From a bacterium (lineage in GTDB: Bacteria; UBP7; UBA6624), in assembly GCA_002716355.1 (NCBI GenBank), contig PBAU01000002.1:22411-86410 (forward strand): a stretch of DNA of 64,000 nt, written 5' to 3'. This document shows, in pieces, positions 6,749 to 54,032 of this stretch. The notes below the pieces were generated by a model. That model searched no databases and was not told the origin of the DNA. It saw only the letters and a program-made list of their open reading frames with translations. Every line of letters starts with the position of its first letter. Within the stretch, counting starts at the first letter, position 1. The translations under genes were made by a program, and so were the position numbers.

Positions 6749-6765
6749 TATACACAACTGAACAA

Positions 6766-10277: not shown

Positions 10278-10360
10278 GCCGGTGTGGCGGAATGGTAGAC
10301 GCGACGGACTTAAAATCCGTTGTCCGCAAGGACGTGGGGGTTCGAGTCCCTTCGCCGGCA
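10278..10360 (+). tRNA. tRNA-Leu, anticodon TAA (class II, long variable arm)
   Basis: 83-nt cloverleaf. The acceptor stem is GCCGGTG/CGCCGGC, the anticodon stem ACGGA/TCCGT with loop CTTAAAA, the long variable arm TGTCCGCAAGGACGT, and the T loop TTCGAGT. The discriminator is A. The gene is contiguous, with no intron. Confidence 0.85.
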
Positions 10361-14965: not shown

Positions 14966-14991
14966 TATTTTTATTGTACCGGTTTTTAAAT

Positions 14992-16269: not shown

Positions 16270-16272
16270 TTC

Positions 16273-16563
16273 TTACTGCAGTGTAATTTTATTTATTTTT
16301 ATCTTTTGATTTGAAAGTTTTTCGATTATCGATTTTTTATTTTTGTTAAGTGTTTTTTTAATAATTGGGTGACTTTTTTTAACACTAACAAACAACTCTT
16401 GGTTTTTAAGGTTTTTTACCTCTGATTTTTTATAGGTTGGTTCTATTTTTTTTTTCCACACACCCCTAACCAACAAGAGTTCATTTAAGCCTGGACTGAT
16501 CTTATTGATTATTTTTTGAATTTCTTTTTTGGGTTTTATACTTTGTTTAAAAATATTTTTCAC
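16273..16563 (-). CDS. DUF721 / DciA-family small basic protein
   Basis: 96 aa and Lys-rich. The pattern LLLVRGVWKKKIEPTYKKSEVKNLKNQELFVSVKKSHPIIKKTL resembles the DUF721 core (W..ivG......t.....dg.L.V.v.s). Its position between dnaN and gyrB is typical for this family. Confidence 0.45.
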   Translation of the reverse strand: MKNIFKQSIKPKKEIQKIINKISPGLNELLLVRGVWKKKIEPTYKKSEVKNLKNQELFVSVKKSHPIIKKTLNKNKKSIIEKLSNQKIKINKITLQ

Positions 16564-17690
16564 CCTTCTATTTTAGGGTGCTTCAAAGTCATTAAAAAAT
16601 ATTTGTAACTGCTATCCTCGGGGTCTGAAAAAAGACAAGAAGAATGCGGATCTTCAAAACTGAAATTCACCTTATCGCTTTTTACAATTTTCAAAAAATC
16701 CAACATGAAGGAACTGTTCAAACAAACCAAAAAATCACCATCTTCAAAATCTTCTGCTGACAAAGTTTCCTCACCTTGGCCCCTTGCTGTATCATCTGTT
16801 GTTATGAGTATCTCTCCTTTATCAATCTTGATCAACGATGCATTATTGAGTTCCTGGTACTTACCAAACTGCTGCAACCTTTCAAGAGCTTTTGTAAATT
16901 CTTTTTTATTTAAAGTAACCTTTTTAGTATGTTTCCTTTCTAGTATTTTTTCATAGTCTGGGTATGTTGGCGTCAATATTGTCGCAAAAAATTTCACACC
17001 CTCATGAACAAACATGACATGATCACCTCTAACCTTTCCTTCCAAGATTCCAGTCCTTCCTGACAAGCCTTTCAATATACTTTTCAATGAATTTGTATCA
17101 ACTTGAATCTTTCTTTCAATGCCACTGTGATCATCGATGCTTACTATAGCCATACGAAAACCATCAGTGTTCACAATTCTTAAAGAACTACCTCTAAAAT
17201 CCAATAAAGTACCGCCAGAATACCCTTGGGAAGAGCCACCTCTAGCAACAATTAAAACCTTTTCAAGAAGTGCTACAAGGTCTTCTGTTTTGATCTCAAA
17301 AACTTCATCAGAACCTTTATCGTTAAAGGGAAAGCTGGTATGAGTTTGTGGAACTATAGATTTAAGGGTGTACCTGGAGCCTGAATTCTTTAAATGCAGA
17401 GCTCCGTCTTGATCGATATCCATTAGAACATCTCCCTCCATTCTTCTGAAAAGCTCCCTCATTTCTGCAATAGGGTAAAAGGTGTTTTCGGTTTCTTCTG
17501 ATATGTTTTTATCCCTGATGGTTAGTGAACAGCCAGATACATTATTAAATGTTTCCAGGATCAAGCTTTTAGATTCATATCTTAGTCCTACATGGGATAT
17601 CCCCCTTAACCCCAACAAAGCATCTCCTGCACATGCAGAAACCGTTGTCAGGCTGTCATGCAACAATGTAGAGGATATTTTTATAGCCAT
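16560..17690 (-). CDS. dnaN: DNA polymerase III subunit beta (sliding clamp)
   Basis: 376 aa directly downstream of dnaA, with three-domain clamp-like length and pattern. There is a 4-nt overlap with the next gene. Confidence 0.85.
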   Translation of the reverse strand: MAIKISSTLLHDSLTTVSACAGDALLGLRGISHVGLRYESKSLILETFNNVSGCSLTIRDKNISEETENTFYPIAEMRELFRRMEGDVLMDIDQDGALHLKNSGSRYTLKSIVPQTHTSFPFNDKGSDEVFEIKTEDLVALLEKVLIVARGGSSQGYSGGTLLDFRGSSLRIVNTDGFRMAIVSIDDHSGIERKIQVDTNSLKSILKGLSGRTGILEGKVRGDHVMFVHEGVKFFATILTPTYPDYEKILERKHTKKVTLNKKEFTKALERLQQFGKYQELNNASLIKIDKGEILITTDDTARGQGEETLSAEDFEDGDFLVCLNSSFMLDFLKIVKSDKVNFSFEDPHSSCLFSDPEDSSYKYFLMTLKHPKIEG

Positions 17691-17775
17691 AAAAGTTATT
17701 TTAAAGAATAAATAGGATATTTGTTATTTGATTAATTAAATTAATTTTTATAAAAAACTACTTCTACTACTATTG

Positions 17776-19086
17776 TTAAAAAAGAGTTAAATTACCATTA
17801 TTTTCAGGGTTAACATCTTGGTTAGAAAAATCTAAAGATATACCATGATTAATAGCAATTGATTTAACCTGACTTTTGAAAAAAGAATCTTTTTTAAGCT
17901 TTTCTTTACCCTTTTTTAACGAATATGTTATTGCAGATTTTTTAACATTTAAAACACGTGATGATGAGGCCTTGCAACCATTCGGACGATTGCACAAAAG
18001 AACAGAAGCAGCCTGTCTAGCTAAAACAACCTCCCTGGATCTTGATCCAGAAAGTAGTGATGATTTTGAAACATTAAAAACATTGCAAATTTCGTCTAAT
18101 AGCGATGAACCAGGTAACGATGTGTCTGTAGACAATGCAAACGAAACAGAGTAGTCTTCAGGGTTTCCAATTGATTTTGACCAAAGAAACCTGGTTGCAA
18201 TCCCTTTTAGAGCCCTAACGTCAGCAGGTAGTTTTTGAAACAGGTTTGTAGGTATGGTGTCTGAATTTTTTTCTTTGATTATTTTTGAAAGCAATATTTC
18301 ACGTTCTTTTTCTAAAGGCGGTGACATTTTTATTACCAGGCCAGCAGTCAGCCTGCTTATTAATCTTGGACTGAATTCACGAATTGTTCTTGGGTGTCTA
18401 TCGGCAACTATAACAATAGGCCGTGATCTTGTTAAAAAGGAATCGAAAACATTAAAAAACTCTTGAAGTGTTCTTTTTCTCCCAATGAACTTTTGTATAT
18501 CGTCAACAAGCAAAGATGATTGGGAAAAAAAGTAAGATTTAAAACTGTTTAGATCTTTTTTTTCAACTGAATCAACCAACTTTTGTGTGAACTCGTCAGA
18601 CGTGAAAACCCTATCGTCAAGGTTTTTTGCTGCGATATTTAGAAGATGGGTTTTTCCAATACCGGGAGGTCCGTATAAAAATATTGGAAACAATTGATTT
18701 TCTAACTTGTTTGTTGTTGTCGAAGCGATTGCCCTAAATGCATTTTCAACCCCTCTGTAAGGGTGAAAATCGTTAAAAATCTCTTTTTTCGCACGAGGTT
18801 TTTTTTTGGTAATGATAGGAACATTTTTTGGTATTTTCTTTGAAGAGATCGATTCGATTAATTTGAAATCTTTGTAATTCAAATTGATAATAATTTTCTT
18901 CAACAGGCCGAAGTTTTTTTCTGCAACTTTAAAATTGTATCTACCTGAAGCAGCAAGAATAACAGTGTTTTCCTGAAAGGTGATTTTTGAAGTTCTCAAA
19001 AGCGATGTTAACAAAAAGAAATTGGGTTCTAGCTTGATTTTTTGGATTATTTTTTCTTTTAGTTTTTTGCTTTTTGAAATTTCCAT
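17776..19086 (-). CDS. dnaA: Chromosomal replication initiator protein DnaA
   Basis: AAA+ Walker A LYGPPGIGKTHL, Walker B LLVDDIQ, a sensor region IVIVADRHPR, and a C-terminal domain IV (REVVLARQAASVLL). Confidence 0.95.
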   Translation of the reverse strand: MEISKSKKLKEKIIQKIKLEPNFFLLTSLLRTSKITFQENTVILAASGRYNFKVAEKNFGLLKKIIINLNYKDFKLIESISSKKIPKNVPIITKKKPRAKKEIFNDFHPYRGVENAFRAIASTTTNKLENQLFPIFLYGPPGIGKTHLLNIAAKNLDDRVFTSDEFTQKLVDSVEKKDLNSFKSYFFSQSSLLVDDIQKFIGRKRTLQEFFNVFDSFLTRSRPIVIVADRHPRTIREFSPRLISRLTAGLVIKMSPPLEKEREILLSKIIKEKNSDTIPTNLFQKLPADVRALKGIATRFLWSKSIGNPEDYSVSFALSTDTSLPGSSLLDEICNVFNVSKSSLLSGSRSREVVLARQAASVLLCNRPNGCKASSSRVLNVKKSAITYSLKKGKEKLKKDSFFKSQVKSIAINHGISLDFSNQDVNPENNGNLTLF

Positions 19087-23989: not shown

Positions 23990-25013
23990 TAAAAATATTA
24001 GTTATATCCAGGCAATTACAGACACAATGTGGTCTGAAATGGAAATTGATGAAACGGTTTTTGTCTTAGGTCAAGATTGTGGAAGATATGGAGGCGTGTT
24101 TAAAGCCACAGCCTGGAGGTCGGAAAAAGACGGCAAACCTGATTTAAGTAAAAAAATGTATGATGAATTTGGACCATTGAGAGTTCTTGATGCACCTTTG
24201 GCAGAAAATGCAATCATCGGTGGTGCAATTGGTGCCGCTTTGTCTGGTTATAGGCCAATTGCTGAGATTCAATTTATGGATTTTATTGATTGTGCTATGG
24301 GCCATATCGTGAACCAAGCAGGCACTATCTCTTTTAAGACTAATGGTAGTTGGTGTTGCCCAATTACAATTCGCACCCCTTATGGTGGAGGTATTGGCGG
24401 TGGTATGACCCATAGCCAAAGCAATGAAGCTTGGTTTTGTCATGCTGGTGGTCTAGTTGTAACCGCACCCAGCACACCAAGAGATGCAGCAGGGCTTTTA
24501 AGATCCTGCATTAGGGCAGATGATCCTTGTGTGTATATTGAGCACAAAGGTTTATATCGAGCTATAACTGGTGATGTGCCTGATGATCCCAACTTCACTA
24601 TTGAATTAGGAAAAGGAAAAGTTGTTCGAGAGGGTAGTGATATTACATTGATTTCTTATGGCGCCATGTTGCACAAATGCTTAAGTGTTGCAGAAAAACT
24701 TGAATCTGAAGGCGCCAGTGTTGAGATTATTGATCCTCGAACATTATGGCCAATGGATGAAGATTTAATGATTAACTCTGCTTGTAAAACAGGCAGGTGT
24801 GTGGTTGTTGCTGAGTCACATGCGGCGTATGGTTTCACTAGCGAGGTTGCCGCAAGAGTGCAAGAGGGTGCCTTTTGGAACCTATTAACACCAATTCGTA
24901 CTATTGCAGGACCAGACACACCCTTCCCTTTTGAACCGGGAATGGAGGCTGCTTATCTGCCTTCAGATGATGAAATATACAACTCTTGTAAAAGAGCGTT
25001 GGGGGACGGATAA
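23982..25013 (+). CDS. 2-oxoacid dehydrogenase E1 component, beta subunit
   Basis: MSSKNISYIQAITDTMWSEMEIDETVFVLGQDCGRYGGVFKAT is a typical E1-beta N-terminus. I trimmed the track ORF (23946) to the ATG at 23982, which overlaps the E1-alpha stop by 8 nt. Confidence 0.85.
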   Translation: MSSKNISYIQAITDTMWSEMEIDETVFVLGQDCGRYGGVFKATAWRSEKDGKPDLSKKMYDEFGPLRVLDAPLAENAIIGGAIGAALSGYRPIAEIQFMDFIDCAMGHIVNQAGTISFKTNGSWCCPITIRTPYGGGIGGGMTHSQSNEAWFCHAGGLVVTAPSTPRDAAGLLRSCIRADDPCVYIEHKGLYRAITGDVPDDPNFTIELGKGKVVREGSDITLISYGAMLHKCLSVAEKLESEGASVEIIDPRTLWPMDEDLMINSACKTGRCVVVAESHAAYGFTSEVAARVQEGAFWNLLTPIRTIAGPDTPFPFEPGMEAAYLPSDDEIYNSCKRALGDG

Positions 25014-26251
25014 TGCCAATTAAAGTTCCAGTTCCCGATCTAGGTGTTTCTGTTGTTGAAGCCAAAGTGGCCGAATGGAAGAAAAAAATAGGTGATGATG
25101 TTGTTCGTGATGAAGAGATTGGTATATTGGAAACAGACAAGATAACAACCCCAATTACAGCATTCAAAGAAGGGAAACTTGTAGCACTTTTTGCAAAACC
25201 TGGGGATACCGTTCCCGTGGGACAAACTATAGCAATTATCCAAAAAGTTGGAGAAAATTTATCCCAAGAAGATATTGATAAGTTGAATCCACATGGTTCA
25301 AAACCGACACCGGAACCGACACCGGAACCGACACCGGAACCCATTAAAACAACTGTTGACACCAAACGTCAAGGCTCAAATCCCCAAACCCTTAAAACCA
25401 GTCCAGCTGTTAGAAGGTATGCGAGTGAGAATGACATTAACCTGGTTGATGTTCAAGGCACTGGCTCTAATGGAAGAATCCAAATGGCTGATGTTTTAGC
25501 GTTTAAAAAACCAATCAAATCTACGGGTTTAAATTTAGAACCTGATAATACTGAATCCAGAAGTCCTGTCAGCAGCTCCATGGCTGTTATGGCAAAACAT
25601 ATGGTTCACTCAGTGTCAACCAGCCCGCATTTTTTAATTGTTGATGAACTTGACATGACTGAAACATTGGCTGTATATAAGAATTTAAAACCAAAATTGC
25701 AAGAAAGCGGAATCAGGTTAACACTCATGAGCTTTTTTGTCAGAGCAGCAGCACAAGCGCTTAAGGATTTTCCAAGAATGAATGTTTCTCTTGAAAAAGA
25801 CACTTTGATAACCAAGAATTATAGAAATATAGGAATGGCAGCTAGTGTTGGGGAAAGTTTGATAGTGCCTGTTATCAAGAATGCTGATCTTTTAAATATT
25901 GAAAATCTTGCAGCTGAAATCAACAGATTGTCTATTGCCGCTCAGGAAAACAAATTAACAATGCAAGACATTACAGGTGGAACATTCACAATCACCAATG
26001 CAGGCATGTTTGGAGGCCCGTTATTTTCAGCACCTATTATCAATCAGCCTGAAGCGGCTATATTGGGTATTCACACAGTGAAAGAAAGAGCTGTTGTTGA
26101 GAATGGAAATATTGTTGTAAAACCAATGGTTTATGTATCCCTTTCAAGTGATCACAGAATGGTAGATGGCGTTTTAGCTGTTAGGTTTTTATGCAGGGTT
26201 AAAGAGTTGCTTCAGCATCCAGGCTTAATGGCAACTGGACCTCTTTTATGA
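25013..26251 (+). CDS. Dihydrolipoamide acyltransferase (E2)
   Basis: One lipoyl domain (LETDKITTPI), a PTPEPTPEPTPEP linker, a peripheral subunit-binding domain (SPAVRRYASENDINL), and a catalytic domain with SSDHRMVDG. Confidence 0.9.
   Translation: MPIKVPVPDLGVSVVEAKVAEWKKKIGDDVVRDEEIGILETDKITTPITAFKEGKLVALFAKPGDTVPVGQTIAIIQKVGENLSQEDIDKLNPHGSKPTPEPTPEPTPEPIKTTVDTKRQGSNPQTLKTSPAVRRYASENDINLVDVQGTGSNGRIQMADVLAFKKPIKSTGLNLEPDNTESRSPVSSSMAVMAKHMVHSVSTSPHFLIVDELDMTETLAVYKNLKPKLQESGIRLTLMSFFVRAAAQALKDFPRMNVSLEKDTLITKNYRNIGMAASVGESLIVPVIKNADLLNIENLAAEINRLSIAAQENKLTMQDITGGTFTITNAGMFGGPLFSAPIINQPEAAILGIHTVKERAVVENGNIVVKPMVYVSLSSDHRMVDGVLAVRFLCRVKELLQHPGLMATGPLL
25304..25342 (+). repeat. Three perfect tandem copies of a 12-bp unit (CCGACACCGGAA) inside the E2 gene
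   Basis: Read directly at 25304-25339, followed by CCC. It encodes the (PTPE)n interdomain linker. Confidence 0.9.
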
Positions 26252-27634: not shown

Positions 27635-27814
27635 ATGTTTGGATTTATTTTTGCTTTAGGACCAACAGAAATTGCTTTAATTGCAGTTGTTGTTTTGGTT
27701 CTTTTTGGACCCAAAAAAGTTACAGAATTCGCAAGATCTCTAGGAAGAACTAGTGGTGAATTCAAAAAAGGACTTGAAGAGGGTAAAAAGACAACAAAAG
27801 ATAAAGAGGAGTAA
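27635..27814 (+). CDS. tatA: Twin-arginine translocase subunit TatA/E
   Basis: MFGFIFALGPTEIALIAVVVLVLFGPKKV... (59 aa). An AAGGAG lies 6 nt upstream of the ATG at 27635. The track ORF starts earlier, inside lpd. Confidence 0.85.
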   Translation: MFGFIFALGPTEIALIAVVVLVLFGPKKVTEFARSLGRTSGEFKKGLEEGKKTTKDKEE

Positions 27815-27823: not shown

Positions 27824-28534
27824 ATGCAAGACAAAAAAATGCCTCTGTCCGAGCATTTTGCTGATCTGCAAAAAACTTTATTAAACAGTCTTCTTTATTG
27901 TTTTTTTGCCTCTGTTTTGCTGTCCTTTTTTCATAAGGAATTATTAATTGCTTTTCAAAAACCACTAAACAATGTCGGAATTACTGCGTTAAATGTTTTA
28001 TCTCCACAAGAGGGGTTCCTCATCCCCATCAAGTTGGTTTTAATGTGTGGTTTAATTGTGGCAACACCTTTGATTGTTAGAGAGGTTACCTTATTTGCCT
28101 GGCCCGCATTAAGGCAAAATGAAAAACAAATACTTCAAACTTTTGTAATCCCAAGTTTTTTAATTGCACTTGTTGCAGCGTTTTTTGCTTGGCAGGTTTT
28201 AATACCAATATCAATTGAATTTCTGCTCAAGGCAACAACAAACAATAACCTACAAGCAACATGGACATTGCAATATTGGTTTGTTTTTGTTCAATCTATG
28301 TTGATTGCCTCTGTGGCTGCTTTTCAACTGCCAATAGTCATGGGGGTTTTAGCTAAATTCGGCTTAATTGACTCACATACGGTCCGGGAAAAAGGCCCAC
28401 ATGCAATTATTGGGCTATTGATATTATCTGGTTTTATAACCCCTCCAGATGTTGTCACGCAGATCATTATCGCCATACCATTAATCCTTCTGTTTTATTT
28501 CAGTATTTTCATAGTCAAGGCAAACGAGGATTAA
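27824..28534 (+). CDS. tatC: Twin-arginine translocase subunit TatC
   Basis: N-terminal MPLSEHFADLQKTLL and six hydrophobic segments, directly after tatA. Confidence 0.85.
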   Translation: MQDKKMPLSEHFADLQKTLLNSLLYCFFASVLLSFFHKELLIAFQKPLNNVGITALNVLSPQEGFLIPIKLVLMCGLIVATPLIVREVTLFAWPALRQNEKQILQTFVIPSFLIALVAAFFAWQVLIPISIEFLLKATTNNNLQATWTLQYWFVFVQSMLIASVAAFQLPIVMGVLAKFGLIDSHTVREKGPHAIIGLLILSGFITPPDVVTQIIIAIPLILLFYFSIFIVKANED

Positions 28535-28603: not shown

Positions 28604-30925
28604 ATGGCACGAATAGGTGTTTTTCTTAGCAAAGAGGGAAAAGGTTTAGATCCGCTTAACCTACAAACCATTGCTGACAGATTGGTTGAGGAAGTGCAGG
28701 AGATAAACCATGTTTTTATACATGAAGACCTCAACACAGTTCAAGGTTTGGAAGCAATATCACAAGAGATCAAAAATCAAGATATTGGCTATGTTGTTAT
28801 CGGTTGTGGCTCTATTGATCAAAGGGAAGAGAATATCAGAAAAACATTGAATACAGCTGGCATTAACGAATACCTTTTGGAGGTTGTTAATCTTAAAGAA
28901 ATGGTAGCTAACGTGCATTCAGAAGAGCCCGAGAAAGCCAATGAAAAAGCTTTTCAGCTATTGAAAACAGCAGTTATCAAGGTTGAGCAAAGTAAACCTT
29001 TAGAAAAAACACCAATGAGGGTGGAACAACAAGTTTTAGTTGTTGGCGGCGGTGTTGCAGGCATGACTGCTTCTTTGAGAATTGCAGATGCTGGCTACAG
29101 TGTTGTTTTAGTTGAAAAGTCACCTGCATTAGGTGGAAAAGTTGCCTCTCTCAAAAATCTTTGGCCAAAACTCGAAGAGGCAGATGACTTAATGAGGAAT
29201 CTTTCAATCAGTTGTCATCAACATGAAAATATAGTTATTTATGATTATTCAGAAGTTAAATCTATAGACGGAGTTCGTGGGGATTTTGATGTTGAAATAG
29301 TCAGAAAACCAAGATTTGTTCAAAGTCAAAAAATTGTAAATTTTGAAAAAATTACAGAATCATTAAAAACGGATTTTCCAAATAAGCACACCGGAGGCAG
29401 GACGGTGAACAAGGTTCTTTATCAACCATACGCAGGCTGTGTCCCACCATTGTTTTTGATAGACCCAGAAAATATAAATCATCCAGATGTCAAAAAGTTA
29501 ATCACACTTGTTCCTGATGGAACTGTGAATCAGAACGAAAAGGAAAAAATCGTTCATGAAAAAGCAGGTGCTGTGATTATGGCTTTTGGAGCTGGGATGA
29601 TGGATTGTTCTGGCTTAACAAATTTAACTGCTGCAAATAGTGAAAATGTACACAGTGCTAGTGATTTTGAATTTTTGAATTTCAAAAAAGACGAAGAAAT
29701 GTCGTTGTTATGGGTTGCAGATGCAGGAAGCAATGATCCCAAGAACGGTGTTGCTTACGCTTCCGAAGTGCCTTTGATGACCTGTGTCAAACAGGCTATT
29801 TTTGCTAAAAAAATGTCTAATGGAAAAATTCACACAACAGTTGTTTACTCAGATAGGAGATCCAGAACAAAAGGATATGAAGAATTTATCAAAACCGCTG
29901 AGGAAAAATACCAGGTACAGATGGTTAGAGGCGCTGTTTCAAATGTAACTTCAAAGTCAAACGGGTTGTCTGTCAGCTTGCACGATTTAATACAGGGCAA
30001 AGAGCAAAAGGTATCAGTTGACAAGGTTGTTTTGGCACAAGAGGTTGTTGCACACGATGATTCACAACATCTAGCAAGTATTGTTGATATAGGTCGTGAC
30101 GAAACAGGCTTTCTTGCTGAAACCCATCCTTCTCTGGAGCCATGTTCAACCAGTAATTCTGGAGTTTTTGTTTGTGGAGACTGTGCGTCTCCCGGTGATA
30201 TCAGAGCTGCTGTTTTGACAGCTGAATCAGCAGTTGCTAAAGCTATGGCCGTTTTGGCCCAAAAAACAAGTGAGCCCTACAGGTTAAAACAAAAAGATGA
30301 GCAACTTGCACGATTTGATGCTCCAGCAAAAGAGGTTTCTCCTGAGAGCTTTCAAACAAATGATGAAGGTGGCATGAATTACACAAGATTAAATAATGTT
30401 TTTGGTAAAACTGAAAGCGGTGTGTCCATACCAGCCTCACCAACCAGAAACATTGAACTTGCTGGTTGGGAGCTTTCTAAGTCAATTGCAGAAATTGAAA
30501 ATATTTGGACAGATGCAAAAAATGACAACTGGGAACCAAGAATAACAGGATTTGCATCACAGTATGGTGGTTATCCACTTTTGGAAACACTTGGAAGAGA
30601 GGAGGTTTCTTATTCATCTTGTTTTAGATTTCTGAGAGTGCGCTCAACAGCACATCTGGATCCACTCCTTGTCCTCAAAAGCTTCTTTAATGGTGCAGAT
30701 GGTGTGTTTATTATTGGTGGACCTTTAGGCAAAGGCAAGTTTCACAACGACAACTACCTTGCAAAAAGAAGATTTAAAGCATTAGAAGGGGTGCTTGATG
30801 CTGGTGGGATTGAGCCAGATAGAGTCAAGATTTTATTTGTAGATTCTCACCAAATTGATGAAGTTGCTGATCAGTTGCAAAAATTCCATAATGCTGTCTC
30901 TAGCTTAGGCCCTTTAGGTATTTGA
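28604..30925 (+). CDS. HdrA-like flavoprotein fused to an MvhD-like domain, lacking the Fe-S cysteine motifs
   Basis: 773 aa. The N-terminus RIGVFLSKEGKGL...VVIGCGSIDQREENIRK...AGINEYLLEVVNLKEMVANVH is colinear with the HdrA N-domain (recalled consensus KIGVxVCHCGxNI...VVVAACSPRxHE...AGLNPxLxExANIRExCSWVH). The FAD motif VLVVGGGVAGMTASLRIADAGYSVVLVEKSPALGGK is intact. WVADAGSNDPKNGVAYAS stands where CVGSRD...YCS is expected. The C-terminal 130 aa (30533-30922) are colinear with MvhD/FlpD but contain no conserved Cys. GGAGG lies 7 nt upstream of the ATG. Confidence 0.7.
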   Translation: MARIGVFLSKEGKGLDPLNLQTIADRLVEEVQEINHVFIHEDLNTVQGLEAISQEIKNQDIGYVVIGCGSIDQREENIRKTLNTAGINEYLLEVVNLKEMVANVHSEEPEKANEKAFQLLKTAVIKVEQSKPLEKTPMRVEQQVLVVGGGVAGMTASLRIADAGYSVVLVEKSPALGGKVASLKNLWPKLEEADDLMRNLSISCHQHENIVIYDYSEVKSIDGVRGDFDVEIVRKPRFVQSQKIVNFEKITESLKTDFPNKHTGGRTVNKVLYQPYAGCVPPLFLIDPENINHPDVKKLITLVPDGTVNQNEKEKIVHEKAGAVIMAFGAGMMDCSGLTNLTAANSENVHSASDFEFLNFKKDEEMSLLWVADAGSNDPKNGVAYASEVPLMTCVKQAIFAKKMSNGKIHTTVVYSDRRSRTKGYEEFIKTAEEKYQVQMVRGAVSNVTSKSNGLSVSLHDLIQGKEQKVSVDKVVLAQEVVAHDDSQHLASIVDIGRDETGFLAETHPSLEPCSTSNSGVFVCGDCASPGDIRAAVLTAESAVAKAMAVLAQKTSEPYRLKQKDEQLARFDAPAKEVSPESFQTNDEGGMNYTRLNNVFGKTESGVSIPASPTRNIELAGWELSKSIAEIENIWTDAKNDNWEPRITGFASQYGGYPLLETLGREEVSYSSCFRFLRVRSTAHLDPLLVLKSFFNGADGVFIIGGPLGKGKFHNDNYLAKRRFKALEGVLDAGGIEPDRVKILFVDSHQIDEVADQLQKFHNAVSSLGPLGI

Positions 30926-30928: not shown

Positions 30929-31822
30929 ATGAATGAAATGAGAATAACAATCCAACGAGAAGCCAGAAGGCTTTTACAGCTGCAAAAAGTCAGCGTTGTT
31001 ATAGGTTATGAGGTTGGTCCATACCCTGGCACGACCGCTCCCTGTTTCGCTTTCACCCCAGATGACGCTCAAAGAATTGTTTTCAATAGCTTTTCGTCTA
31101 TCAATTTAGCCGTTTATCTTCCAGGCATTACTGGAAATGTTGGCATAGTGGCCACACCTGCAACTGTAAGATCCATCAAAGAGCTCGAAAAAGACGGCTT
31201 GGTGAATCGTAAAAATCTGCATATTATTGGTGTGAAATTTCCAGGAATATTAGATCCTCGACATTTAAATGTTGACAGAGAGAACGAAAATACGTTATCA
31301 GTCAATGAGCATCCAGAAGCTTTATGGGAGTGGGCACTTCATGATCTTTACGAGGAGCCAGAAGATTATGACATACTTGTTGAGCCCAGGTGGATGAATG
31401 ACCTCAGTAAAGCCGGCAAACTAAAAAAACCCACCCCAAACCGTACCAGCGTTGAAAGGTTAGAGCAGATGACTCATCACGAAAGAAGGCTATACTGGAT
31501 GAGTTATTTTGAAAAACATAGGCATTCAGACCATAATAAAAATTTATTTCCTTCCACTTATGCGGGAGGAGACCATTTAGAAAAGTTTAAATATATCAAA
31601 TCTGCATATAGCTCGAACGAGCTTTTTTACGAACATCTTTCATGGGTTTACCAATCGATGGGTCGAGCTTCTGGCTTCGATCTCTCAGACCTTACAGAGG
31701 ACATGAATCAAATACCCCTTTCAACAATTCGAGCTTGGGCTGCTAGAGAGTTTAGAAAAAATTTTAATTACAGGCCAGGTGGGGAAGAGCCAAATCCATT
31801 ACTGAAAAAGGAAAACATATAA
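30929..31822 (+). CDS. Hypothetical protein resembling the Fe-S subunit of FrhB/FlxC/HydB-type oxidoreductases, with a single Cys
   Basis: 297 aa. VSVVIGYEVGP...NLAVYLPGITGNVGIVATPATVRSIKELEK...NLHIIGVKFPGIL resembles the recalled (V/I)GxPCxxRA...(I/V)GxxCxG layout with the cysteines replaced. It starts 3 nt after the upstream stop. The family assignment needs an HMM search. Confidence 0.35.
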   Translation: MNEMRITIQREARRLLQLQKVSVVIGYEVGPYPGTTAPCFAFTPDDAQRIVFNSFSSINLAVYLPGITGNVGIVATPATVRSIKELEKDGLVNRKNLHIIGVKFPGILDPRHLNVDRENENTLSVNEHPEALWEWALHDLYEEPEDYDILVEPRWMNDLSKAGKLKKPTPNRTSVERLEQMTHHERRLYWMSYFEKHRHSDHNKNLFPSTYAGGDHLEKFKYIKSAYSSNELFYEHLSWVYQSMGRASGFDLSDLTEDMNQIPLSTIRAWAAREFRKNFNYRPGGEEPNPLLKKENI

Positions 31823-31823: not shown

Positions 31824-32846
31824 ATGAGCGACTATATTTTGTCAAAAGCTAAATTGAAATATTGGTTAGAGGATGTCAGAAAACGAAATGAACTATGGGC
31901 ACCCGTTGGATCCAAAGGCGCTGTAAGTTATTTGAAAAATCCAAAAGGTGAAAATGTTGCAACAGATTTTACAAATAGTTTGGATTGTCCAAAGTATATA
32001 TTTTGCCCACAGCAAGATGCCATATGCAACTATGAGATACAAGGAAGAGGCAAGGTTGCTATTGAGGAAGTTGAGCTCGATGTGACTCCTAGAGTTGTAT
32101 TTGGCTTACGGCCACCAGACATTAGAGGCATCGAAATTCTCGATGCTTACCTGTTGAAAGATCAAATTGATCGGAGATACGAGGCAAGGCGAAAAAATAC
32201 AATAAATATTTGTCTTGGTTACCATAACCCACCTCCTTGCTGTTTCGCAGAGTCTGTAGGTGTCGATCTTTTTCCCAAGAGTGGCTCTGACATTTTGTTA
32301 ACTGATATTGGTAGGAGTTATTATGTTGAAACACTTTCTGAAAAAGGAGATAGCCTGATCTCGGAACATTTCAATGAAGCTGATGATATTGTTCGAAATG
32401 AAGCCTGGGATATACAGAAGGGAAGTGAAGGAAAAACAAATTTTGATTTAAATTTGAATCGTTGGCAGGATTTCACTGATACTGAAATTTACACTTTGCC
32501 GTATTGGGATGAAATTTATTTGGGCATTATTGCTGATTCTGTCGCAACCAGGTATTTTTACTCAGGAACTTATTTTAAGATTGTTGATGTTAACAGTGGA
32601 AACAAGGGCACAAGGTATAAAACCTGGACAACAATGTATTCTCCAGGCTTTTCAACATTGGCAAATGGTTATGACTACAAGCCAAGCCTCAAGGAAAAAT
32701 TTAAAGATTGGATATTAGAAATGTTTCATTTTTTTCCAAAAAGACATGGTTTTATTGGCTGTTCAGGTGCGCACAGGTGCATTGCAGGCATGACCACCAA
32801 GCATGACCTGAGAAAAATTATTTCTAATGTGGACTTTGGAATATGA
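31824..32846 (+). CDS. AsrA / sulfhydrogenase-beta (HydB, FlxB)-like protein with degenerate ferredoxin motifs
   Basis: 340 aa. ELWAPVG..., CPKYIFCPQQDAICNY, VVFGLRPPDIRGIEILD (expected GxRPCDxxAxxxLD), RRYEARRKNTINICLGYHNPPPCCFAES, and FIGCSGAHRCIAG (expected CVGCGRCxxxCP). There is no CxxCxxCxxxCP motif. Confidence 0.5.
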   Translation: MSDYILSKAKLKYWLEDVRKRNELWAPVGSKGAVSYLKNPKGENVATDFTNSLDCPKYIFCPQQDAICNYEIQGRGKVAIEEVELDVTPRVVFGLRPPDIRGIEILDAYLLKDQIDRRYEARRKNTINICLGYHNPPPCCFAESVGVDLFPKSGSDILLTDIGRSYYVETLSEKGDSLISEHFNEADDIVRNEAWDIQKGSEGKTNFDLNLNRWQDFTDTEIYTLPYWDEIYLGIIADSVATRYFYSGTYFKIVDVNSGNKGTRYKTWTTMYSPGFSTLANGYDYKPSLKEKFKDWILEMFHFFPKRHGFIGCSGAHRCIAGMTTKHDLRKIISNVDFGI

Positions 32847-33619
32847 ATTTAGTACCAAAGATAGCAAATATAAAAAATACAGAACGGGATGGTCGTTTAG
32901 GGTCAATATCATTTGATTTTGATGGGGACCTGAAGGCCGGACAGGTTTTCAAGATAGGGACCTTTGGAAAAGGAGAAACAACTGCTTGGGTCATAGATGC
33001 GGAAGATAAAACCGTAACCGTTTCGTTTCTGGATAACAACCCTGTCACACATAAAATCATGCTCCTTCCCACAGATGAATGCATTACTGTAAGAGGGCCA
33101 TTTGGCAATGGTTTTTCACTTTTAGATGAAAGAAATATTTTATTAATTAGTCAAGATGATGGAATATTAAGCCAAAAGAAACTTATTAATGATTTGCTCC
33201 AAAATGGTAATCAGGTCAGCTTGCTCCACTTCACCTCTTTTCCAAAAGATATATTTATGAGCTCTTCACTTAAAAAAGCTGTATCAGATGACTCTCCTAT
33301 CAATGGTGAAATTATCGATATGACAAAAAAAGGACCACAGGATTTAGATACGTTTATCAAATCTTGCATCAAGGCAAGTTACACCTCCGGAATAAACGCA
33401 GTGGCTCTATCAGGCAATGAGAATTTTCAGCAGTCTGTGTCGAGGGTTCTGGAGAAAACAATGATTAAAGATAAAAGCATACAAATTTTATTTAATCGTA
33501 ATTTTGTTTCAGGAATGGGTTGGTCTAACAAGGATCTTTACGGTACCACAAACATATGGAAAGAAGGGCCAGTATTTACATTAGATCAGGTTCGAAGATT
33601 CCCAGGTGTATTCATTTAA
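32843..33619 (+). CDS. PyrK / AsrB / HydG (FlxA)-like ferredoxin-reductase-fold protein lacking the 2Fe-2S and dinucleotide motifs
   Basis: 258 aa. VRGPFGNGF is the PyrK-family hallmark. The expected GGxGxxP reads ISQDDGILS. The C-terminal cluster site reads VSGMGWSNKDLYG where CGxGxCxxC is expected. There is a 4-nt overlap with the upstream gene. Confidence 0.55.
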   Translation: MNLVPKIANIKNTERDGRLGSISFDFDGDLKAGQVFKIGTFGKGETTAWVIDAEDKTVTVSFLDNNPVTHKIMLLPTDECITVRGPFGNGFSLLDERNILLISQDDGILSQKKLINDLLQNGNQVSLLHFTSFPKDIFMSSSLKKAVSDDSPINGEIIDMTKKGPQDLDTFIKSCIKASYTSGINAVALSGNENFQQSVSRVLEKTMIKDKSIQILFNRNFVSGMGWSNKDLYGTTNIWKEGPVFTLDQVRRFPGVFI

Positions 33620-34720: not shown

Positions 34721-35644
34721 ATGAATCGTTTAAAAAGCATAAATCTACGTTTTTTGTTGATGCCCTTTGTTCTGGCTTTTATTTTTGCTTTTGAGGATAT
34801 TGACACTAAAGAGAAGTCAAGCGAGGAGTTATGGGTTGTAAATTTTTTAGCTGAAGGAGTGGTTTTACCACCCGGTCAGATAGATTTGCCAAAAATAACT
34901 ATCGATTACACAAAAACTGACCATGCCAAAATTGCTAAGAATCTTTTGGGTGCAGACATAGAGGCAGAAACCTCTGTCGGTTTAACCAGAGTTATCGATC
35001 AGGGTTTTCAAACATATGCAACCGAGGACGGCCGAGAATTATTGGTTTTTCCTCATGGTGGAATCACATTTAACCATCCTTTTGCCGGGGTGCATGAGTT
35101 GTTCCCATTAACCCGCACACAGGCAGAAAGTGTTCTGGATATTTTTAATAACAATTTTAATTATTTTCCAGAAGATGCCTCACTGGTCAATACAGGAGAA
35201 ATTAAACATCCAGAATATCAGTCTTTCAACAACAGTCAAGGATTACCGTTTGGTTACATTTATGAATATGGGCGTTATTTTAAAAATGTTCTCATTAAAA
35301 ATGATGTAGTCAGGGCTTTAGTGGTTGGCGGAAGAGTTTGGGAATTTTCATTTTCCTGGGGCGATCAGCCTGTTGAGATTGAAGACACTGAGGCAACAAT
35401 AATCCCAGCATGGTCTGCAGTTAAGGATGCCATCGAGTATGCGTATAGGAATTTTTACGCTGGAGAATATTACGCAGATGTATTTGTTACCAAGGTTCAA
35501 CTTGTTTATACTTTTGATGGCCTACAGGAGGCATGGAAAAAGGATGAACCAAAAAGATTAGTTCCGGCATGGGTGGTCCAGATAAATAAATCGAATGAAA
35601 TTATCTTAGAAGCTTTCACCGGTCAAGTTATTCCCATTTATTAA
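34721..35644 (+). CDS. Hypothetical exported or membrane-anchored protein
   Basis: 307 aa with an N-terminal hydrophobic segment (LRFLLMPFVLAFIFAF). No family recognised. Confidence 0.45.
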   Translation: MNRLKSINLRFLLMPFVLAFIFAFEDIDTKEKSSEELWVVNFLAEGVVLPPGQIDLPKITIDYTKTDHAKIAKNLLGADIEAETSVGLTRVIDQGFQTYATEDGRELLVFPHGGITFNHPFAGVHELFPLTRTQAESVLDIFNNNFNYFPEDASLVNTGEIKHPEYQSFNNSQGLPFGYIYEYGRYFKNVLIKNDVVRALVVGGRVWEFSFSWGDQPVEIEDTEATIIPAWSAVKDAIEYAYRNFYAGEYYADVFVTKVQLVYTFDGLQEAWKKDEPKRLVPAWVVQINKSNEIILEAFTGQVIPIY

Positions 35645-35690: not shown

Positions 35691-36803
35691 ATGAGTTCCA
35701 CCGAAGCAGGAGATGTTGTTGCCCAGGCTATACTTCAAAAATACCCTAAATCAAATGTATTTGTTAAGAATTTTGCAGATGGTGGTGAGGGAACGGCAGA
35801 TGTCCTGTTGGATTATTTCGATCATGAAGCTCACAAGGTTAAAACCCAAGGTGCCAACGGGAAGGATATTGATGCTTATTGGTATTTTTTGAAAAAAGAA
35901 AAAGTAGCCCTGCTAGAAATGGCTTCAATTGTCGGGATTTCAATGATTCCCAAGTCCGAATTAGATCCAGAGGCTTTAAGCACTTGCGGTCTTGCTCCAG
36001 TTATTATTGACATTCTTGAAAAAGGTATTAGAAAAATCTGGTTTACTGTTGGCGGAACCTCAACGGTTGATGCTGGACTTGGCTTGCTGAAAGGGATGGG
36101 CGTTTCCACACGGGAAGGGACATTTCCTAATTCATTATTAGCAGTAAAGAAAGATATTTTTTTTGATTTTAAAAATTTAGATTCGATGATTTCAGATCTT
36201 AAAATACACCCAGCAAAAGGCAGCTGTTTGTTTCCTGATGTTTTTTTTGATATAATAGCTGATGTTCGCGCTCCTCTTTTAGGTAAGCGAGGTGCTGTTT
36301 TGGCTTTTGGCAAGCAAAAGGGTGCTACCCCTAAAAATATTCCTATTTTGGAACAAGGGATGGCTGATTTTGCTTGTATGGTTGAAGCCAAAGTCGAGGA
36401 CTCGACCTTTTTGCAAACAAAAGGTTTGGGTGCTGCTGGCGGCATCGCTCTTGGGCTGGCCTTGCTTTTTAACGTGAATATTAAAAATGGAGCTGATTTT
36501 GTTATTGACAAAATGGGGCTCAGGGACGAGATGAGTAATTTTGATTTTGTGATAACAGGAGAGGGACAGTTTAACTCTCAAACCAAACAAGGGAAAGGGC
36601 CATGGTCTATTGCATCACTAGCTGTAAGTAATAGCACCCCAGTTTTGATTATTAGTGGTTTGAAAATTAAAGAAAGAAACAAAACAAAAGATTTTTCTTT
36701 CTTGGAGGTTTCTCAGACAGTCCCAAGAAACAAAAAAGAGGCACAATTAAATCTTTTCCAAGCTATGAGTGGATGGCTTGATGATAATGAGGTGAAAAAA
36801 TGA
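35691..36803 (+). CDS. Glycerate kinase (start codon problematic, see findings)
   Basis: FADGGEGTADVLL and FVITGEGQFNSQTKQGKGP match glycerate kinase signatures. The conserved N-terminal DSFKG motif is encoded in frame upstream of the first ATG (35691). Confidence 0.8.
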   Translation: MSSTEAGDVVAQAILQKYPKSNVFVKNFADGGEGTADVLLDYFDHEAHKVKTQGANGKDIDAYWYFLKKEKVALLEMASIVGISMIPKSELDPEALSTCGLAPVIIDILEKGIRKIWFTVGGTSTVDAGLGLLKGMGVSTREGTFPNSLLAVKKDIFFDFKNLDSMISDLKIHPAKGSCLFPDVFFDIIADVRAPLLGKRGAVLAFGKQKGATPKNIPILEQGMADFACMVEAKVEDSTFLQTKGLGAAGGIALGLALLFNVNIKNGADFVIDKMGLRDEMSNFDFVITGEGQFNSQTKQGKGPWSIASLAVSNSTPVLIISGLKIKERNKTKDFSFLEVSQTVPRNKKEAQLNLFQAMSGWLDDNEVKK

Positions 36804-39664
36804 AACAAAACAAAGTAATTGATATGGGTTTGATTATTACTGAAACCTTTGCAGGTATTATGCAGAAAAATATTGCAAAAGCAGGAACTTTAAAAGATCT
36901 AGAAGCCAGTTTTTTAGAATATGAGGATGCTATTGGTTTAGATGCAAAAATATTTGTTAAAAGATATGCTATGAAGTTTTTATCAAATTGTGCTTTTATA
37001 AAAAAATGGGATGATGGTTGGGTTTTAGTTCCTCATAAGCTAAAAGCACACAAGCTAGCAAGAGAAATACTAGAAGAAAGCGGATCTTTTATGTTGGAAT
37101 CCAAAATAAGAAGCCAAGTTGCTAAGCGACTCGGACAGAAAGTTAGTGAGACAAAGTTATATCTAGATATAGATGATGATTTTTCATTGGCGGAAGGCTT
37201 AAGGCAGGAAGATCAAATAGGCAGAGGTGCCATTTGGGGTTTGTGTGAATGGGTTTTGATTAATAATTTAGCAAAAACCCTTATTGAATCCCGAGGTCCA
37301 ATGAAAGAAAAAAGAATCATCAGCACATTGATCGAGAATGATTTAGTTACACAGGAAAAACAACCTGTTTTTTGCCCGCAGATAGACAAGAGATTTATAG
37401 CTGAATCAGGTAATTCATGGGATGTAGGAAAGGCAAAAAAGCAACCCCTTCAGACACCTAAAACCGGAGCTTTGGAGACCAAGATAAGAGAGGAGATAAC
37501 AAGCAAGGTAGAAAGATTGCTGGAGAATCAGGCATCAGACAAGAGTTTTTCAAAACAGGAGATTACAACTGCCCTGATTGGTAGTGCAAAAAGTTCTAAA
37601 GGTTCTCATTACCAGGACATGCTGGACGAGATCCTTTCTGTTTTTGAGAAATCTAAAAAGATAACCAAGGTTCGATTCGAACTTAAAAACCCATATTGGA
37701 TTAAGTCTGAAAGCCTGCCAAAGATAGATGTAAAAAAATTAGATCTAATTTTTCCACTCCCATATTCCGAACATCAGCTTTTGGGAGACGATATATTTAA
37801 TGAAAATCTTTTTGCAAATCTCTCTGATCCAGCTTTGTATTGGTTGGACGGGGATTTTTCCGAACAGGGTTTTCCTGAGGTGGAGCCATTGTTTATTTTA
37901 ACTTTCAATGACTTTGTAAATGACGAGTTAAACTACATATCACAACCATTGGTTAATGCTATTCAGGCTTCATTGCTTGCATCTAATGAGTGGGGTGAAT
38001 TTGTTTTACAAACACCCGACAAGCAAGAGCTTTCTATTTTGATTAATTTTAAGCATCAAATAATTTCAGGTATGGCATCCTGGGTTAATGGCTATGCCCA
38101 ACCTGGTGATGTTTACAATTTCGAATATCTCGGATCATCTACTTTCAGGCTTGTAAAAAATAAAGAGATTAAAAATCCATCACTAGATGACGATGAACTA
38201 GAAAGATTACTCTCCTTACAGGCAGAGAGCAAACTAACACTCAAAAAACTTGTAATTGAAGTTTTAAAACATCACCCAGGTGGTTTAACCTTCAGCGGTA
38301 TATTTAATCGCTTAATGTTTATAAGAAGAATTTCAAGAAGATCTTTAATGAGTGAGTTGACAAAATTCTTTTGTTTTGATTGTAAAGATGATAAATGGAA
38401 ATATTATGAAAAAAGATCTGACCTAGGAGAAAAGTTTTCTGCTAGCTCTTTTCCAATTGCTGGTTTAAATACCAATTGTTGGATATTGCGTGAGGAAATG
38501 CAGCCCGAAGTTGGGGATTCATTGAATATGGTTTATGGGAAAGCAGCACATAATGATTTGTTTTGCATTGTTAATCCAAAAAATCAACTTACCAGTGTGT
38601 TTCGATTAGCCGTTAAAGGTAAAAAATGCACAATTCAAGATATTACAAGCTGTGAGCCAATGCCTTTAGATAATTTTGATATCCCAAAAGCAGGTCTGAA
38701 TCAGATTGAGAATTCAGTTTTTTGTGACATTAACGAAGAGCTTGAAAGGGAGGTTTTGGATTCCGAAGTTTACGCAGGAATTAAGCAGGCCTTCACGACA
38801 TTTGAACCTAATCCAAGTGTAAACCAGGAGGTTACAAGAAGCTTAGAGGAGCTAGAGAGTCTTTTGGAGGATTCTGGTTCCGTTAGTCCATTCGGTGGCT
38901 TGGCATGGCAACTTCAGCAAAAATTTACCTGGCAGGAATTTCAAAAAGTTTTAGACTCAAAGATTTATTCTCAAGAGCATGAGGACCGTTTGGATGCAGG
39001 CAAGTTTGCAAGCTGGATGGCGAAAAGACCAATAGCATGGGACTCCGAATCGATTGTTTATCCAGCTGGACATGGGGAATTGTCAATCTGCATTCTGGAA
39101 GCATTGATTTCCATAATGCAAAATGCTGATTACACCATAGAGGAAGATTCACTTAACATTAGAACAGCCCTTAATAGCGATTTTGTTTTTAACTGGAGCA
39201 AACTGTTGTCAGACCAAAGAAGAATCAAGAAGATTGTTGACATGGAAGATAGTTTTGAATTAGTTGAATTTTTATCTGGCTGGTTTAGACGAGTAGCCAA
39301 GATTATTGAACCTAGAAAATTAGAAAGTGTAATTAACAGGTTAAGTTTTCACCTGAAAGGTATCGGATCTGTCGATATTAGCGATAAGGATTTGCCAGAA
39401 TATTTAAAATCAGAAAAATCTTCCCTGACAGGTCTAAGTCTTTCTGGAGACAAGCAAGAAAAATCTGCAACTTTGTTTGCAGATTTTAGAGGATTTTCAA
39501 AAGCCAAGATTAAGAAAACATTAAGCCTAGCACCTTCAGTTCTTGTTGATGGGGGACTGCTTGTTTTTGTTTCATTTGAAAATCAAAAAGTAAACTTTAA
39601 AAATGGAAAGCTAGAGGACCAGATCTCAATGGGTTCAATAGTTGCTAAATCTTATATCGTTTAA
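36800..39664 (+). CDS. Large hypothetical cytoplasmic protein (954 aa)
   Basis: Uninterrupted ORF with a 4-nt overlap with the glycerate kinase gene. I saw no P-loop, nuclease or methyltransferase motifs. Several segments look like winged-helix/HARE-HTH modules (for example LAKTLIESRGPMKEKRIISTLIEN and LVIEVLKHHPGGLTFSGIFNRL). Confidence 0.5.
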   Translation: MKQNKVIDMGLIITETFAGIMQKNIAKAGTLKDLEASFLEYEDAIGLDAKIFVKRYAMKFLSNCAFIKKWDDGWVLVPHKLKAHKLAREILEESGSFMLESKIRSQVAKRLGQKVSETKLYLDIDDDFSLAEGLRQEDQIGRGAIWGLCEWVLINNLAKTLIESRGPMKEKRIISTLIENDLVTQEKQPVFCPQIDKRFIAESGNSWDVGKAKKQPLQTPKTGALETKIREEITSKVERLLENQASDKSFSKQEITTALIGSAKSSKGSHYQDMLDEILSVFEKSKKITKVRFELKNPYWIKSESLPKIDVKKLDLIFPLPYSEHQLLGDDIFNENLFANLSDPALYWLDGDFSEQGFPEVEPLFILTFNDFVNDELNYISQPLVNAIQASLLASNEWGEFVLQTPDKQELSILINFKHQIISGMASWVNGYAQPGDVYNFEYLGSSTFRLVKNKEIKNPSLDDDELERLLSLQAESKLTLKKLVIEVLKHHPGGLTFSGIFNRLMFIRRISRRSLMSELTKFFCFDCKDDKWKYYEKRSDLGEKFSASSFPIAGLNTNCWILREEMQPEVGDSLNMVYGKAAHNDLFCIVNPKNQLTSVFRLAVKGKKCTIQDITSCEPMPLDNFDIPKAGLNQIENSVFCDINEELEREVLDSEVYAGIKQAFTTFEPNPSVNQEVTRSLEELESLLEDSGSVSPFGGLAWQLQQKFTWQEFQKVLDSKIYSQEHEDRLDAGKFASWMAKRPIAWDSESIVYPAGHGELSICILEALISIMQNADYTIEEDSLNIRTALNSDFVFNWSKLLSDQRRIKKIVDMEDSFELVEFLSGWFRRVAKIIEPRKLESVINRLSFHLKGIGSVDISDKDLPEYLKSEKSSLTGLSLSGDKQEKSATLFADFRGFSKAKIKKTLSLAPSVLVDGGLLVFVSFENQKVNFKNGKLEDQISMGSIVAKSYIV

Positions 39665-54025: not shown

Positions 54026-54032
54026 AACAAGT

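Follow-up and report, generated by a model that had tools for sequence, protein, structure and literature searches.

We analysed a 64,000-nucleotide stretch of DNA from an uncultured marine bacterium (the window) and found in it an operon of four forward-strand genes that looks like a flavin-based complex from which the wiring has been removed. The first gene, which we call hdrA* (28604–30925), encodes a homologue of the HdrA-MvhD fusion proteins. The three genes behind it, o297, o340 and o258, encode homologues of the FlxC, FlxB and FlxA subunits of Flx-Hdr complexes. Of the 67 cofactor cysteines that are conserved in the four families, about 59 have been replaced here. We hold, with somewhat better than even confidence, that the operon encodes an exapted complex that is still assembled and has flavin adenine dinucleotide (FAD) as its only clear cofactor.

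HdrA-based complexes are regarded as belonging to an ancient anaerobic core, and their many iron-sulfur (Fe-S) clusters are central to their mechanism. In the window operon essentially all of the clusters have been lost in four subunits at once, and the constraint is still that of a central metabolic enzyme. We see it as a natural experiment on what a bifurcating scaffold does without its wires, on a bifurcating flavin site when it is electronically isolated, and on the remodelling of anaerobic Fe-S machinery in lineages known from open-ocean (Tara Oceans) metagenomes.

The HdrA* protein and its cysteine columns

The hdrA* gene has an ATG start with a GGAGG 8 nt 5' of it and encodes 773 amino acids (aa). 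An earlier note on this DNA had read the protein as colinear with HdrA from its first residue and its last 130 aa as MvhD/FlpD along their whole length, and both readings held up. Residues 3–771 align with positions 1–774 of the 777 in the NCBIfam HdrA2 model NF040770 (E 3.7e-116). Residues 46–553 align with 5odc_A, the HdrA of the Mvh-Hdr complex of Methanothermococcus thermolithotrophicus (E 3.3e-68; Foldseek with the hdrA* model against the same chain, E 2e-52), and residues 642–771 align with the MvhD chain, 5odc_D, over 130 residues with zero gaps (E 1.3e-19). The Pfam FlpD/MvhD family (PF02662) matches residues 647–769 over the whole of its model (1–123 of 123), with 85.1 bits against a gathering threshold of 22.3 (E 5e-24). 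Elsewhere in hdrA* Pfam gives FAD-type Rossmann signatures only, and there is no Pfam match to any Fer4 family in the protein. The pairwise and hidden Markov model alignments are thus statistically supported, with E between 1e-19 and 1e-116, and they support hdrA* as a full-length homologue of the HdrA2 type. It nevertheless scores below the curated HdrA cut-offs, with 389 bits against 1100 for HdrA2, and 276 against 1300 and 255 against 1400 for two others.

We took 19 canonical HdrA proteins of 624–667 aa as the reference, aligned them with MAFFT, and called a column conserved when 95% or more of these proteins have Cys there. There are 27 such columns, and neither the window protein nor any of its five closest relatives has a Cys in one of them. 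The N-terminal domain relic (aa 1–135; 28604–29008), where the HA3 'shuttle' cluster would sit (role from PMC13580544), has S9, E11, N44, G69 and V101 at its ligand columns. The first part of the FAD-binding Rossmann domain (aa 141–237; 29024–29314) keeps GGGVAG, E171 and GG, and has E192 and D195 where the CSxC pair used to be. In the relic of the inserted ferredoxin domain (aa 238–312; 29315–29539), which the model predicts with a predicted local distance difference test score (pLDDT) of about 80–95, all eight Cys have become hydrophobic residues (I244, F247, I250, L254, I291, V296, L299, V303). The second, thioredoxin-reductase-like part (aa 313–553; 29540–30262) has D373, A386, P390 and L391 at the HA4 columns and also carries K396, the GD motif (516–533), C514 and C527. 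The C-terminal ferredoxin relic (aa 554–635; 30263–30508) has A569, D572, A575 and S579, then K602, S605, S608 and S612, so that its motifs now read AxxDxxAxxxSP and KxxSxxSxxxSP, with KTESGVSIPASP at the position of a CxxCxxCxxxCP. Finally, in the MvhD/FlpD-like domain (aa 642–771; 30527–30916), the six Cys of 5odc_D align with A651, S652, G655, S681, P707 and G711.

Every motif substitution that the earlier note had listed is borne out in the MAFFT alignment and in the HMMER alignments, its remembered consensus strings agree with the computed ones, and the inserted ferredoxin region does lack Cys pairs. Two of its points need correcting. It had counted the CSxC pair among the cluster sites, but this conserved Cys pair lies between the MvhD cluster and the FAD, binds a ligand that is unknown, and is not a cluster ligand (PMC13580544). 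It had also underestimated the stripping, since it missed both the C-terminal ferredoxin relic, with eight of eight Cys gone, and the three downstream genes. In canonical complexes the MvhD 2Fe-2S cluster and the Cys pair form the input, HA4 leads to HdrBC as the high-potential branch, and HA3, HA5 and HA6 make up the low-potential branch (PMC13580544).

Could the true ligands be hidden by misalignment, or could an alternative genetic code or sequencing error have produced the pattern? We consider the chance of this next to negligible. We found nothing in its favour, and it is refuted by E-values from alignments that are ungapped or nearly so, by the Cys count, and by independent contigs. There are just nine Cys in the 773 residues and only C514 and C527 are conserved over three deep lineages, which excludes a misalignment that conceals the ligands. 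C68 lies one residue ahead of a canonical Cys column but is G in one relative (P0005), and C394 adjoins an old ligand column and is likewise not conserved in relatives. The neighbouring genes use Cys normally. The identical hdrA* protein occurs on nine independent contigs, and its relatives come from independent projects. Many of the replacement residues are invariant among these relatives.

The FAD site is a different matter. The fingerprint consists of G148-G-G-V-A-G153, E171, G177-G178 and the GD motif (T516...G525-D526...P530-G-D-I), and it is invariant in the clade, in half-stripped relatives described below, and in the joint alignment with canonical HdrA. K396 corresponds to K409 of M. 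thermolithotrophicus HdrA and is also invariant in the clade and the half-stripped relatives. K409 contacts the flavin N5 and separates bifurcating HdrA from other proteins of the thioredoxin reductase fold (PMC12054007). The suggestion that the dinucleotide fold is kept and FAD binding plausible is therefore well supported by the sequence, and we infer that hdrA* binds FAD. We also looked at the second Rossmann domain as a site for NAD(P)H and rejected it, as the GxGxxG position there reads VADAGSND.

The AlphaFold2 (AF2) model of hdrA* has a mean pLDDT of 78. It matches full chains of solved HdrA structures with template modelling (TM) scores of 0.72–0.79, and its core matches 8rwn_A with a TM score of 0.90 and a root-mean-square deviation of 2.4 Å. 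Confidence is low at 185–192 (the old Cys-pair loop), at 584–606 in the C-terminal ferredoxin relic, and at 666–670. In one relative the protein is longer (825 aa, L023:6527–9004; L and P numbers are our handles for loci and proteins), and some 40 inserted residues, rich in Pro, Glu and Ala, separate its ferredoxin relic from its MvhD domain, which suggests a flexible tether.

Partner genes and the electron-transfer route

Only 3 nt separate hdrA* from o297 and 1 nt separates o297 from o340, while o340 and o258 overlap by 4 nt, which indicates translational coupling. Homologues of flxA, flxB, flxC and flxD stand beside hdrA* as o258, o340, o297 and the fused MvhD domain, in the order found in intact operons. 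The individual Flx names are tentative assignments from Pfam architecture.

The first partner, o297 (30929–31822, forward strand; named for its 297 residues), is an FdhB/ElpB/FlxC-like protein with an FrhB_FdhB_C domain and a ferredoxin relic. By itself it has no Pfam match. A database search gave full-length similarity to proteins of about 315 aa with FrhB_FdhB_C and two ferredoxin motifs (E down to 2e-19), and a profile built from the family matched FdhB/ElpB chains in Hdr supercomplexes (9t1s_M, 9e-39; 7bkb_E, 7e-36; 8rvu_E, 6e-29). Foldseek with the AF2 model matched the same FdhB/ElpB chains (E 1e-7), so that o297 resembles the FdhB/FrhB family (PF04432) in both sequence and fold. Nineteen canonical members share 16 invariant Cys columns, and at none of these do the window protein and its orthologues from six genomes have a Cys; P0124 and P0125, two clade members at a greater distance, still have one of the 16. 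The Cys at position 39 of o297 is invariant within the clade.

The second partner, o340 (31824–32846, forward strand), is FlxB/HydB-like, that is, similar to the beta subunit of sulfhydrogenase I (9nez_B, E 3e-13), and it also has a Fer4_22 match. It has lost ten of the 12 Cys that are invariant in three canonical FlxB-like proteins. The sole survivors, C313 and C319, both lie in the old ferredoxin motif, and a new adjacent pair, C139 and C140, is specific to the clade and invariant in it. From the sequence, these four invariant Cys could be a single candidate metal or thiol site.

The third, o258 (32843–33619, forward strand), is FlxA/HydG-like and matches sulfhydrogenase gamma and PyrK-type proteins, with no Pfam match. 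None of its five conserved Cys columns is kept, and at the 2Fe-2S ligands we find S223, S228, D231 and W239. The nucleotide loop, GGGxGxxP in the family, has become SQDDGILS. The FNR module of FlxA, which binds NAD(P)H and FAD and has a 2Fe-2S cluster, is thus not recognisable in o258.

These counts also bear on whether the complex still transfers electrons, either through clusters held by Ser, Asp, Glu or His ligands, or by a route between bound flavins and the four Cys of o340. Such a role can draw on S605, S608 and S612, three Ser for Cys in one ferredoxin motif of hdrA*, on E192 and D195 in place of the Cys pair, and on the invariant Cys of o340, two of them at original ferredoxin positions. 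However, most of the replacements are residues that cannot ligate metal (Gly, Val, Ala, Pro, Leu, Ile, Phe), and apart from o340 no site has more than two possible ligands. A cluster in o340, even if bound, would be isolated from the flavin, and the NAD loop of o258 is destroyed. No Fe-S wire runs through FlxB and FlxC when o297 keeps none of its 16 Cys and o340 two of 12 plus two new ones. We regard continued electron transfer of this kind as very unlikely.

Related operons and selective constraint

Intact operons of the type hdrC-hdrB-hdrA-(DUF3108)-mvhD-[FdhB-like]-[Fer4_22]-[FNR/PyrK-like] occur in Armatimonadota, Latescibacteria and other metagenome-assembled genomes (MAGs; L013, L015, L016). 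The window operon corresponds to the FlxABCD-HdrABC gene set with hdrA and mvhD fused and with hdrB and hdrC gone from the locus. We found no hdrB or hdrC in the 64-kb window or in the fetched flanks of any of the clade loci, whereas canonical loci have them.

When 1.84 billion representative proteins were searched with a profile, 974 matched at E < 1e-30 and 8,816 at E up to 0.001. Among the best 150 matches, those outside the clade are HdrA-type in appearance, and we inspected the ligand columns in the 32 of them that have at most 830 aa. Three of these proteins are partly stripped. P0295, from a hydrothermal-vent MAG (REYS20-1, GCA_027058205.1; L020 and L021), is an HdrA in which the C-terminal ferredoxin motifs are still in place, but the Cys of the N-terminal part, the Cys pair and the thioredoxin-reductase domain are gone, and so are most of those in the inserted ferredoxin. 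Its operon (L020:7286–13126, also in L021) reads tatC-hdrA'-mvhD'-flxC'-flxB'-flxA', and most Fe-S motifs are still present in the partner proteins. P0295 and the window clade have derived motifs in common (E[VI]PLM..KQA, LPYW[DE]E[VI]YL and FPxRH), and from these sequences the half-stripped operon looks like an evolutionary intermediate. P0329 (in L022:1679–5703), likewise a fusion of HdrA and MvhD, has no inserted ferredoxin domain; its MvhD part is Cys-less and just the C-terminal ferredoxin is intact. It has nfnA/nfnB-like genes upstream, and a flxC-like gene and msrA, for a methionine sulfoxide reductase (PF01625), downstream. P0278 (797 aa) has all of the HdrA cluster Cys and is fused to a Cys-less MvhD-like domain, which indicates that the MvhD 2Fe-2S site has also been lost independently in otherwise canonical HdrA2-type proteins. 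Taken together, these three proteins show that cofactor loss in the HdrA family is graded, with the window clade as its end point, and the L020 operon and P0278 give an ordered series for stepwise loss. A metagenome scan added just four further loci, all from these lineages.

The four open reading frames (ORFs) are intact in at least eight genomes, namely the window, six GTDB species representatives (L005–L010) and L023, among which GyrB identity falls to 64%. For pairs with unsaturated dS, ratios of nonsynonymous to synonymous substitution rates (dN/dS, Nei-Gojobori) were 0.03–0.06 for hdrA*, 0.02–0.03 for o297, 0.03–0.035 for o340 and 0.04–0.09 for o258, compared with 0.04–0.08 for the pyruvate dehydrogenase (PDH) subunit E3 and 0.02–0.13 for tatC as controls. 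The four-gene set is under strong purifying selection, as strong as that on the core enzyme E3.

That leaves very little room for the operon to be the decaying pseudogene remnant of an anaerobic ancestor. The massive loss of catalytic residues fits decay, and so does the accelerated divergence, as the clade has 30% identity to canonical HdrA and canonical proteins average 62% among themselves. But ratios equal to or below those of E3 and TatC, frames intact across such divergent genomes, and many invariant replacement residues effectively refute decay, and we give it hardly any credence. A fast branch leading to the clade and low ratios within it are consistent with a shift in function after which constraint set in again, as far as sequences can tell.

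We also considered whether the organism has lost its Fe-S proteins in general, and rejected this. LipA in the window keeps both of its motifs, CX4CX5C and CX3CX2C, and the aconitase-family protein keeps its Cys, so the loss is limited to this operon.

Neighbourhood, function and known systems

The genes for twin-arginine translocation (Tat) stand 5' of hdrA*, namely tatA (27635–27814, 59 aa; PF02416 on the gene call of the same scaffold, L011 9032–9211, offset 18603) and tatC (27824–28534, 236 aa; Pfam TatC, E 4e-46; TIGR00945), both on the forward strand. Throughout the clade, and in L020 as well, tatC is the gene immediately 5' of the stripped hdrA. The gap between tatC and hdrA* is 69 nt in the window, and in other lineages the two overlap by 4–8 nt (L010, 8001–8004; L023, 6527–6530; L020, 8001–8008). 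The L020 locus has nothing in common with the window except the block from tatC and hdrA* to flxA*, its remaining flanks being wholly different, so that tatC is the sole neighbour found both there and in the clade loci. The canonical Flx-Hdr loci L013, L015 and L016 have no tatC nearby. This adjacency may reflect a functional link with Tat, or it may merely be inherited gene order.

One way to read the link is that the four proteins form a non-redox scaffold or chaperone, which holds or proofreads Tat substrates or binds TatC, with FAD structural or absent. We consider this unlikely, though worth keeping in view. If the lineages are related, plain inheritance may account for the gene order that speaks for it, and the P0329 locus, on a short contig, adjoins the nfnAB-like genes and msrA instead of tatC. 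No subunit has a twin-arginine signal; the one candidate, 'EARRLLQL' in o297, was rejected because canonical homologues have the same helix at this place and the model predicts it as a helix with confidence. Nor is there homology to any known Tat chaperone family. A scaffold that does not use a flavin would also have no need of a strictly conserved FAD fingerprint and N5 lysine.

The exapted complex that we favour would have arisen from a Flx-Hdr-type operon, hdrCBA-mvhD-flxC-flxB-flxA. Its four proteins would still assemble around a dimeric HdrA* core, where the N-terminal, C-terminal and MvhD 'arm' would dock the FdhB-like subunit in the way seen in Fdh-Hdr and Elp-Hdr. We infer assembly because the genes are translationally coupled and the partners are constrained equally to or more than HdrA*, because FdhB-like subunits dock on MvhD in 7BKB and 8RVU, and because the L023 linker fits a mobile arm. 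HdrA* would still bind FAD. With the conserved Cys lost, the NADH-entry module destroyed and no hdrBC nearby, bifurcation and the reduction of heterodisulfide or ferredoxin are excluded; lacking an Fe-S wire from the flavin, the complex would do neither. The flavin may then be a catalytic site open to a diffusible substrate, or a redox sensor, and the other subunits would be structural partners, among which the four invariant Cys of o340 may form the one metal or thiol site that is left. A direct reaction of the flavin with a diffusible hydride donor (F420H2) has been proposed for HdrA2-type proteins (PMC12054007).

Several points weigh against this picture. FAD binding in hdrA* is read from motifs. 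E356 of HdrA, said to position the N5 lysine (PMC12054007), corresponds to E347, which varies in the clade (E/E/E/K/K/E). The second Rossmann domain, lacking GxGxxG, offers no obvious NAD(P)H site from which the flavin could be reduced. The AF2 alignments included canonical homologues, which may have led to over-prediction of the ferredoxin folds in the relics, two of which have low pLDDT. A simple flavoenzyme role also leaves unexplained why three dead partners are conserved more strongly than the flavoprotein.

We put forward more tentatively, at somewhat less than even confidence, a broader account in which a bifurcating complex became a cluster-free machine by way of a half-stripped intermediate that still exists, and in which the machine serves a new function without cluster electron transfer and may be coupled to Tat. 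The Tat part of this account is based on tatC, which is co-operonic with the stripped genes in each of the stripped lineages.

In any case, 'hydrogenase iron-sulfur subunit' and heterodisulfide reductase, the names that automatic annotation gives to these proteins, should not be used for hdrA*, since they would wrongly imply an anaerobic, hydrogen-linked or bifurcating metabolism for these MAGs.

The window DNA is found on the Tara Oceans scaffold TARA_SAMEA2622823_METAG-scaffold_118, and Tara Oceans, further marine co-assemblies and the NIOZ-UU106 MAG are the sources of its relatives. Outside the clade, GyrB is about 50% identical to that of diverse phyla (Marinimicrobia, Rhodothermales, Kiritimatiellae, Omnitrophica), which indicates a deep-branching marine lineage. 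An affiliation with Margulisbacteria, to which the SLH-domain protein and the marine habitat might point, found no support. Upstream of hdrA* are lipB, lipA and the PDH genes for E1 alpha, E1 beta, E2 and E3, followed by tatA and tatC, and downstream is a convergent ksgA. A functional link to lipB-lipA-PDH, by analogy with sHdr and lipoate-binding proteins, was considered and is unsupported, as the adjacency is confined to the closely syntenic clade and absent in L020. Promoter and terminator scans gave counts at chance level and were uninformative.

The E2 gene of PDH is a single 412-aa ORF in the window (25013–26251). In related contigs (L006:4262–5647, L007, L009, L011:6881–7648) it appears as two ORFs (about 153–169 and 255–286 aa) or as the C-terminal 255 aa only. 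The L011 call is the public gene call of the window's own scaffold, and the split may be an assembly or gene-calling problem in the linker region.

Farther out, the window holds the chromosomal origin region (12917–19086 and 3709–4458, with rnpA, yidC, gyrB, dnaN and dnaA), an SLH-domain protein (7974–9311) and three tRNAs (6676–6838 and 10278–10360). Two conserved ORFs with no Pfam family (36800–39664, 954 aa; 34721–35644, 307 aa) have syntenic counterparts of 964 and 302 aa in L001, a relative at 50% identity. There is also a phosphate-uptake cluster (53225–59938, with a PhoU-domain regulator, pstS, pstC, pstA, two pstB-like ATPase genes and phoU), and there are histidine-utilisation genes (urocanase, 49781–51514; an amidohydrolase, 47058–48311). 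Judging by gene content, these would fit a heterotroph under phosphate limitation.

The hdrA* protein would work like no characterised relative. Among characterised systems, the closest in architecture is HdrA2, the 'type Ia' HdrA-MvhD fusion of Methanosarcina acetivorans HdrA2B2C2 and its bacterial and archaeal homologues. The domain order is the same from end to end (773 against 777 positions), with the N-terminal domain, the thioredoxin-reductase-like FAD domain with its inserted ferredoxin, the C-terminal ferredoxin and MvhD, and the FAD fingerprint and N5 lysine are conserved. HdrA2 carries a single FAD together with four [4Fe-4S] clusters and a [2Fe-2S] cluster (PMC5296606). In the window protein, on the other hand, the ligand Cys are all replaced, hdrB2C2 are not in the fetched flanks, and the score falls well short of the HdrA2 cut-off, as given above.

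FlxABCD-HdrABC of Desulfovibrio vulgaris has been reported as an NADH dehydrogenase/heterodisulfide reductase (Ramos et al. 2015, as cited by PMC5296606 and PMC5861303). The window operon has homologues of hdrA, mvhD/flxD, the FdhB-like Fe-S protein, the Fer4_22/HydB-like protein and the FNR/PyrK-like protein in the same order. It differs in having no adjacent hdrB or hdrC and in the fusion of mvhD to hdrA. It has also lost the NAD(P)H loop and the 2Fe-2S site, and no more than one possible Fe-S site remains.

In the methanogen supercomplexes Fdh-Hdr-Fmd (7BKB) and Elp-Hdr (8RVU; PMC12350162), structures show subunits of this kind docked on a 'mobile arm' of HdrA. The HdrA* model fits their HdrA with TM scores of 0.76–0.79, the MvhD domain resembles MvhD/ElpC, and o297 resembles FdhB/ElpB at E 6e-29 to 9e-39. 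Those complexes are loaded with cofactors, bifurcate electrons and use F420, formate or H2, while the window complex has neither a catalytic donor subunit nor clusters.

The sHdrA of Hyphomicrobium denitrificans, a minimal flavoprotein of the HdrA type found in sulfur oxidisers, retains one [4Fe-4S] cluster and has sHdrB and sHdrC as partners. As a reduced HdrA in a non-methanogen, this protein (6TJR) is comparable to hdrA* in its conserved FAD domain (Foldseek E 1e-22, TM score 0.86 on the target). It lacks the ferredoxin domains, however, whereas hdrA* has all of the domains but no cluster, and no HdrBC nearby.

Dead subunits in redox complexes have precedents, such as FhcB and a cofactor-less molybdopterin-like protein in hdrABC-mvhD-fdhB clusters (PMC12054007). 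Each of these is one dead subunit in an active complex, whereas in the window essentially the whole complex has been stripped. In the literature on HdrA pseudoenzymes and on lost Cys ligands of HdrA-MvhD, we found no account of a wholesale cluster-free complex. By descent hdrA* belongs to the HdrA2/MvhD and Flx lineages, but it lacks the cofactor features that define each of them.

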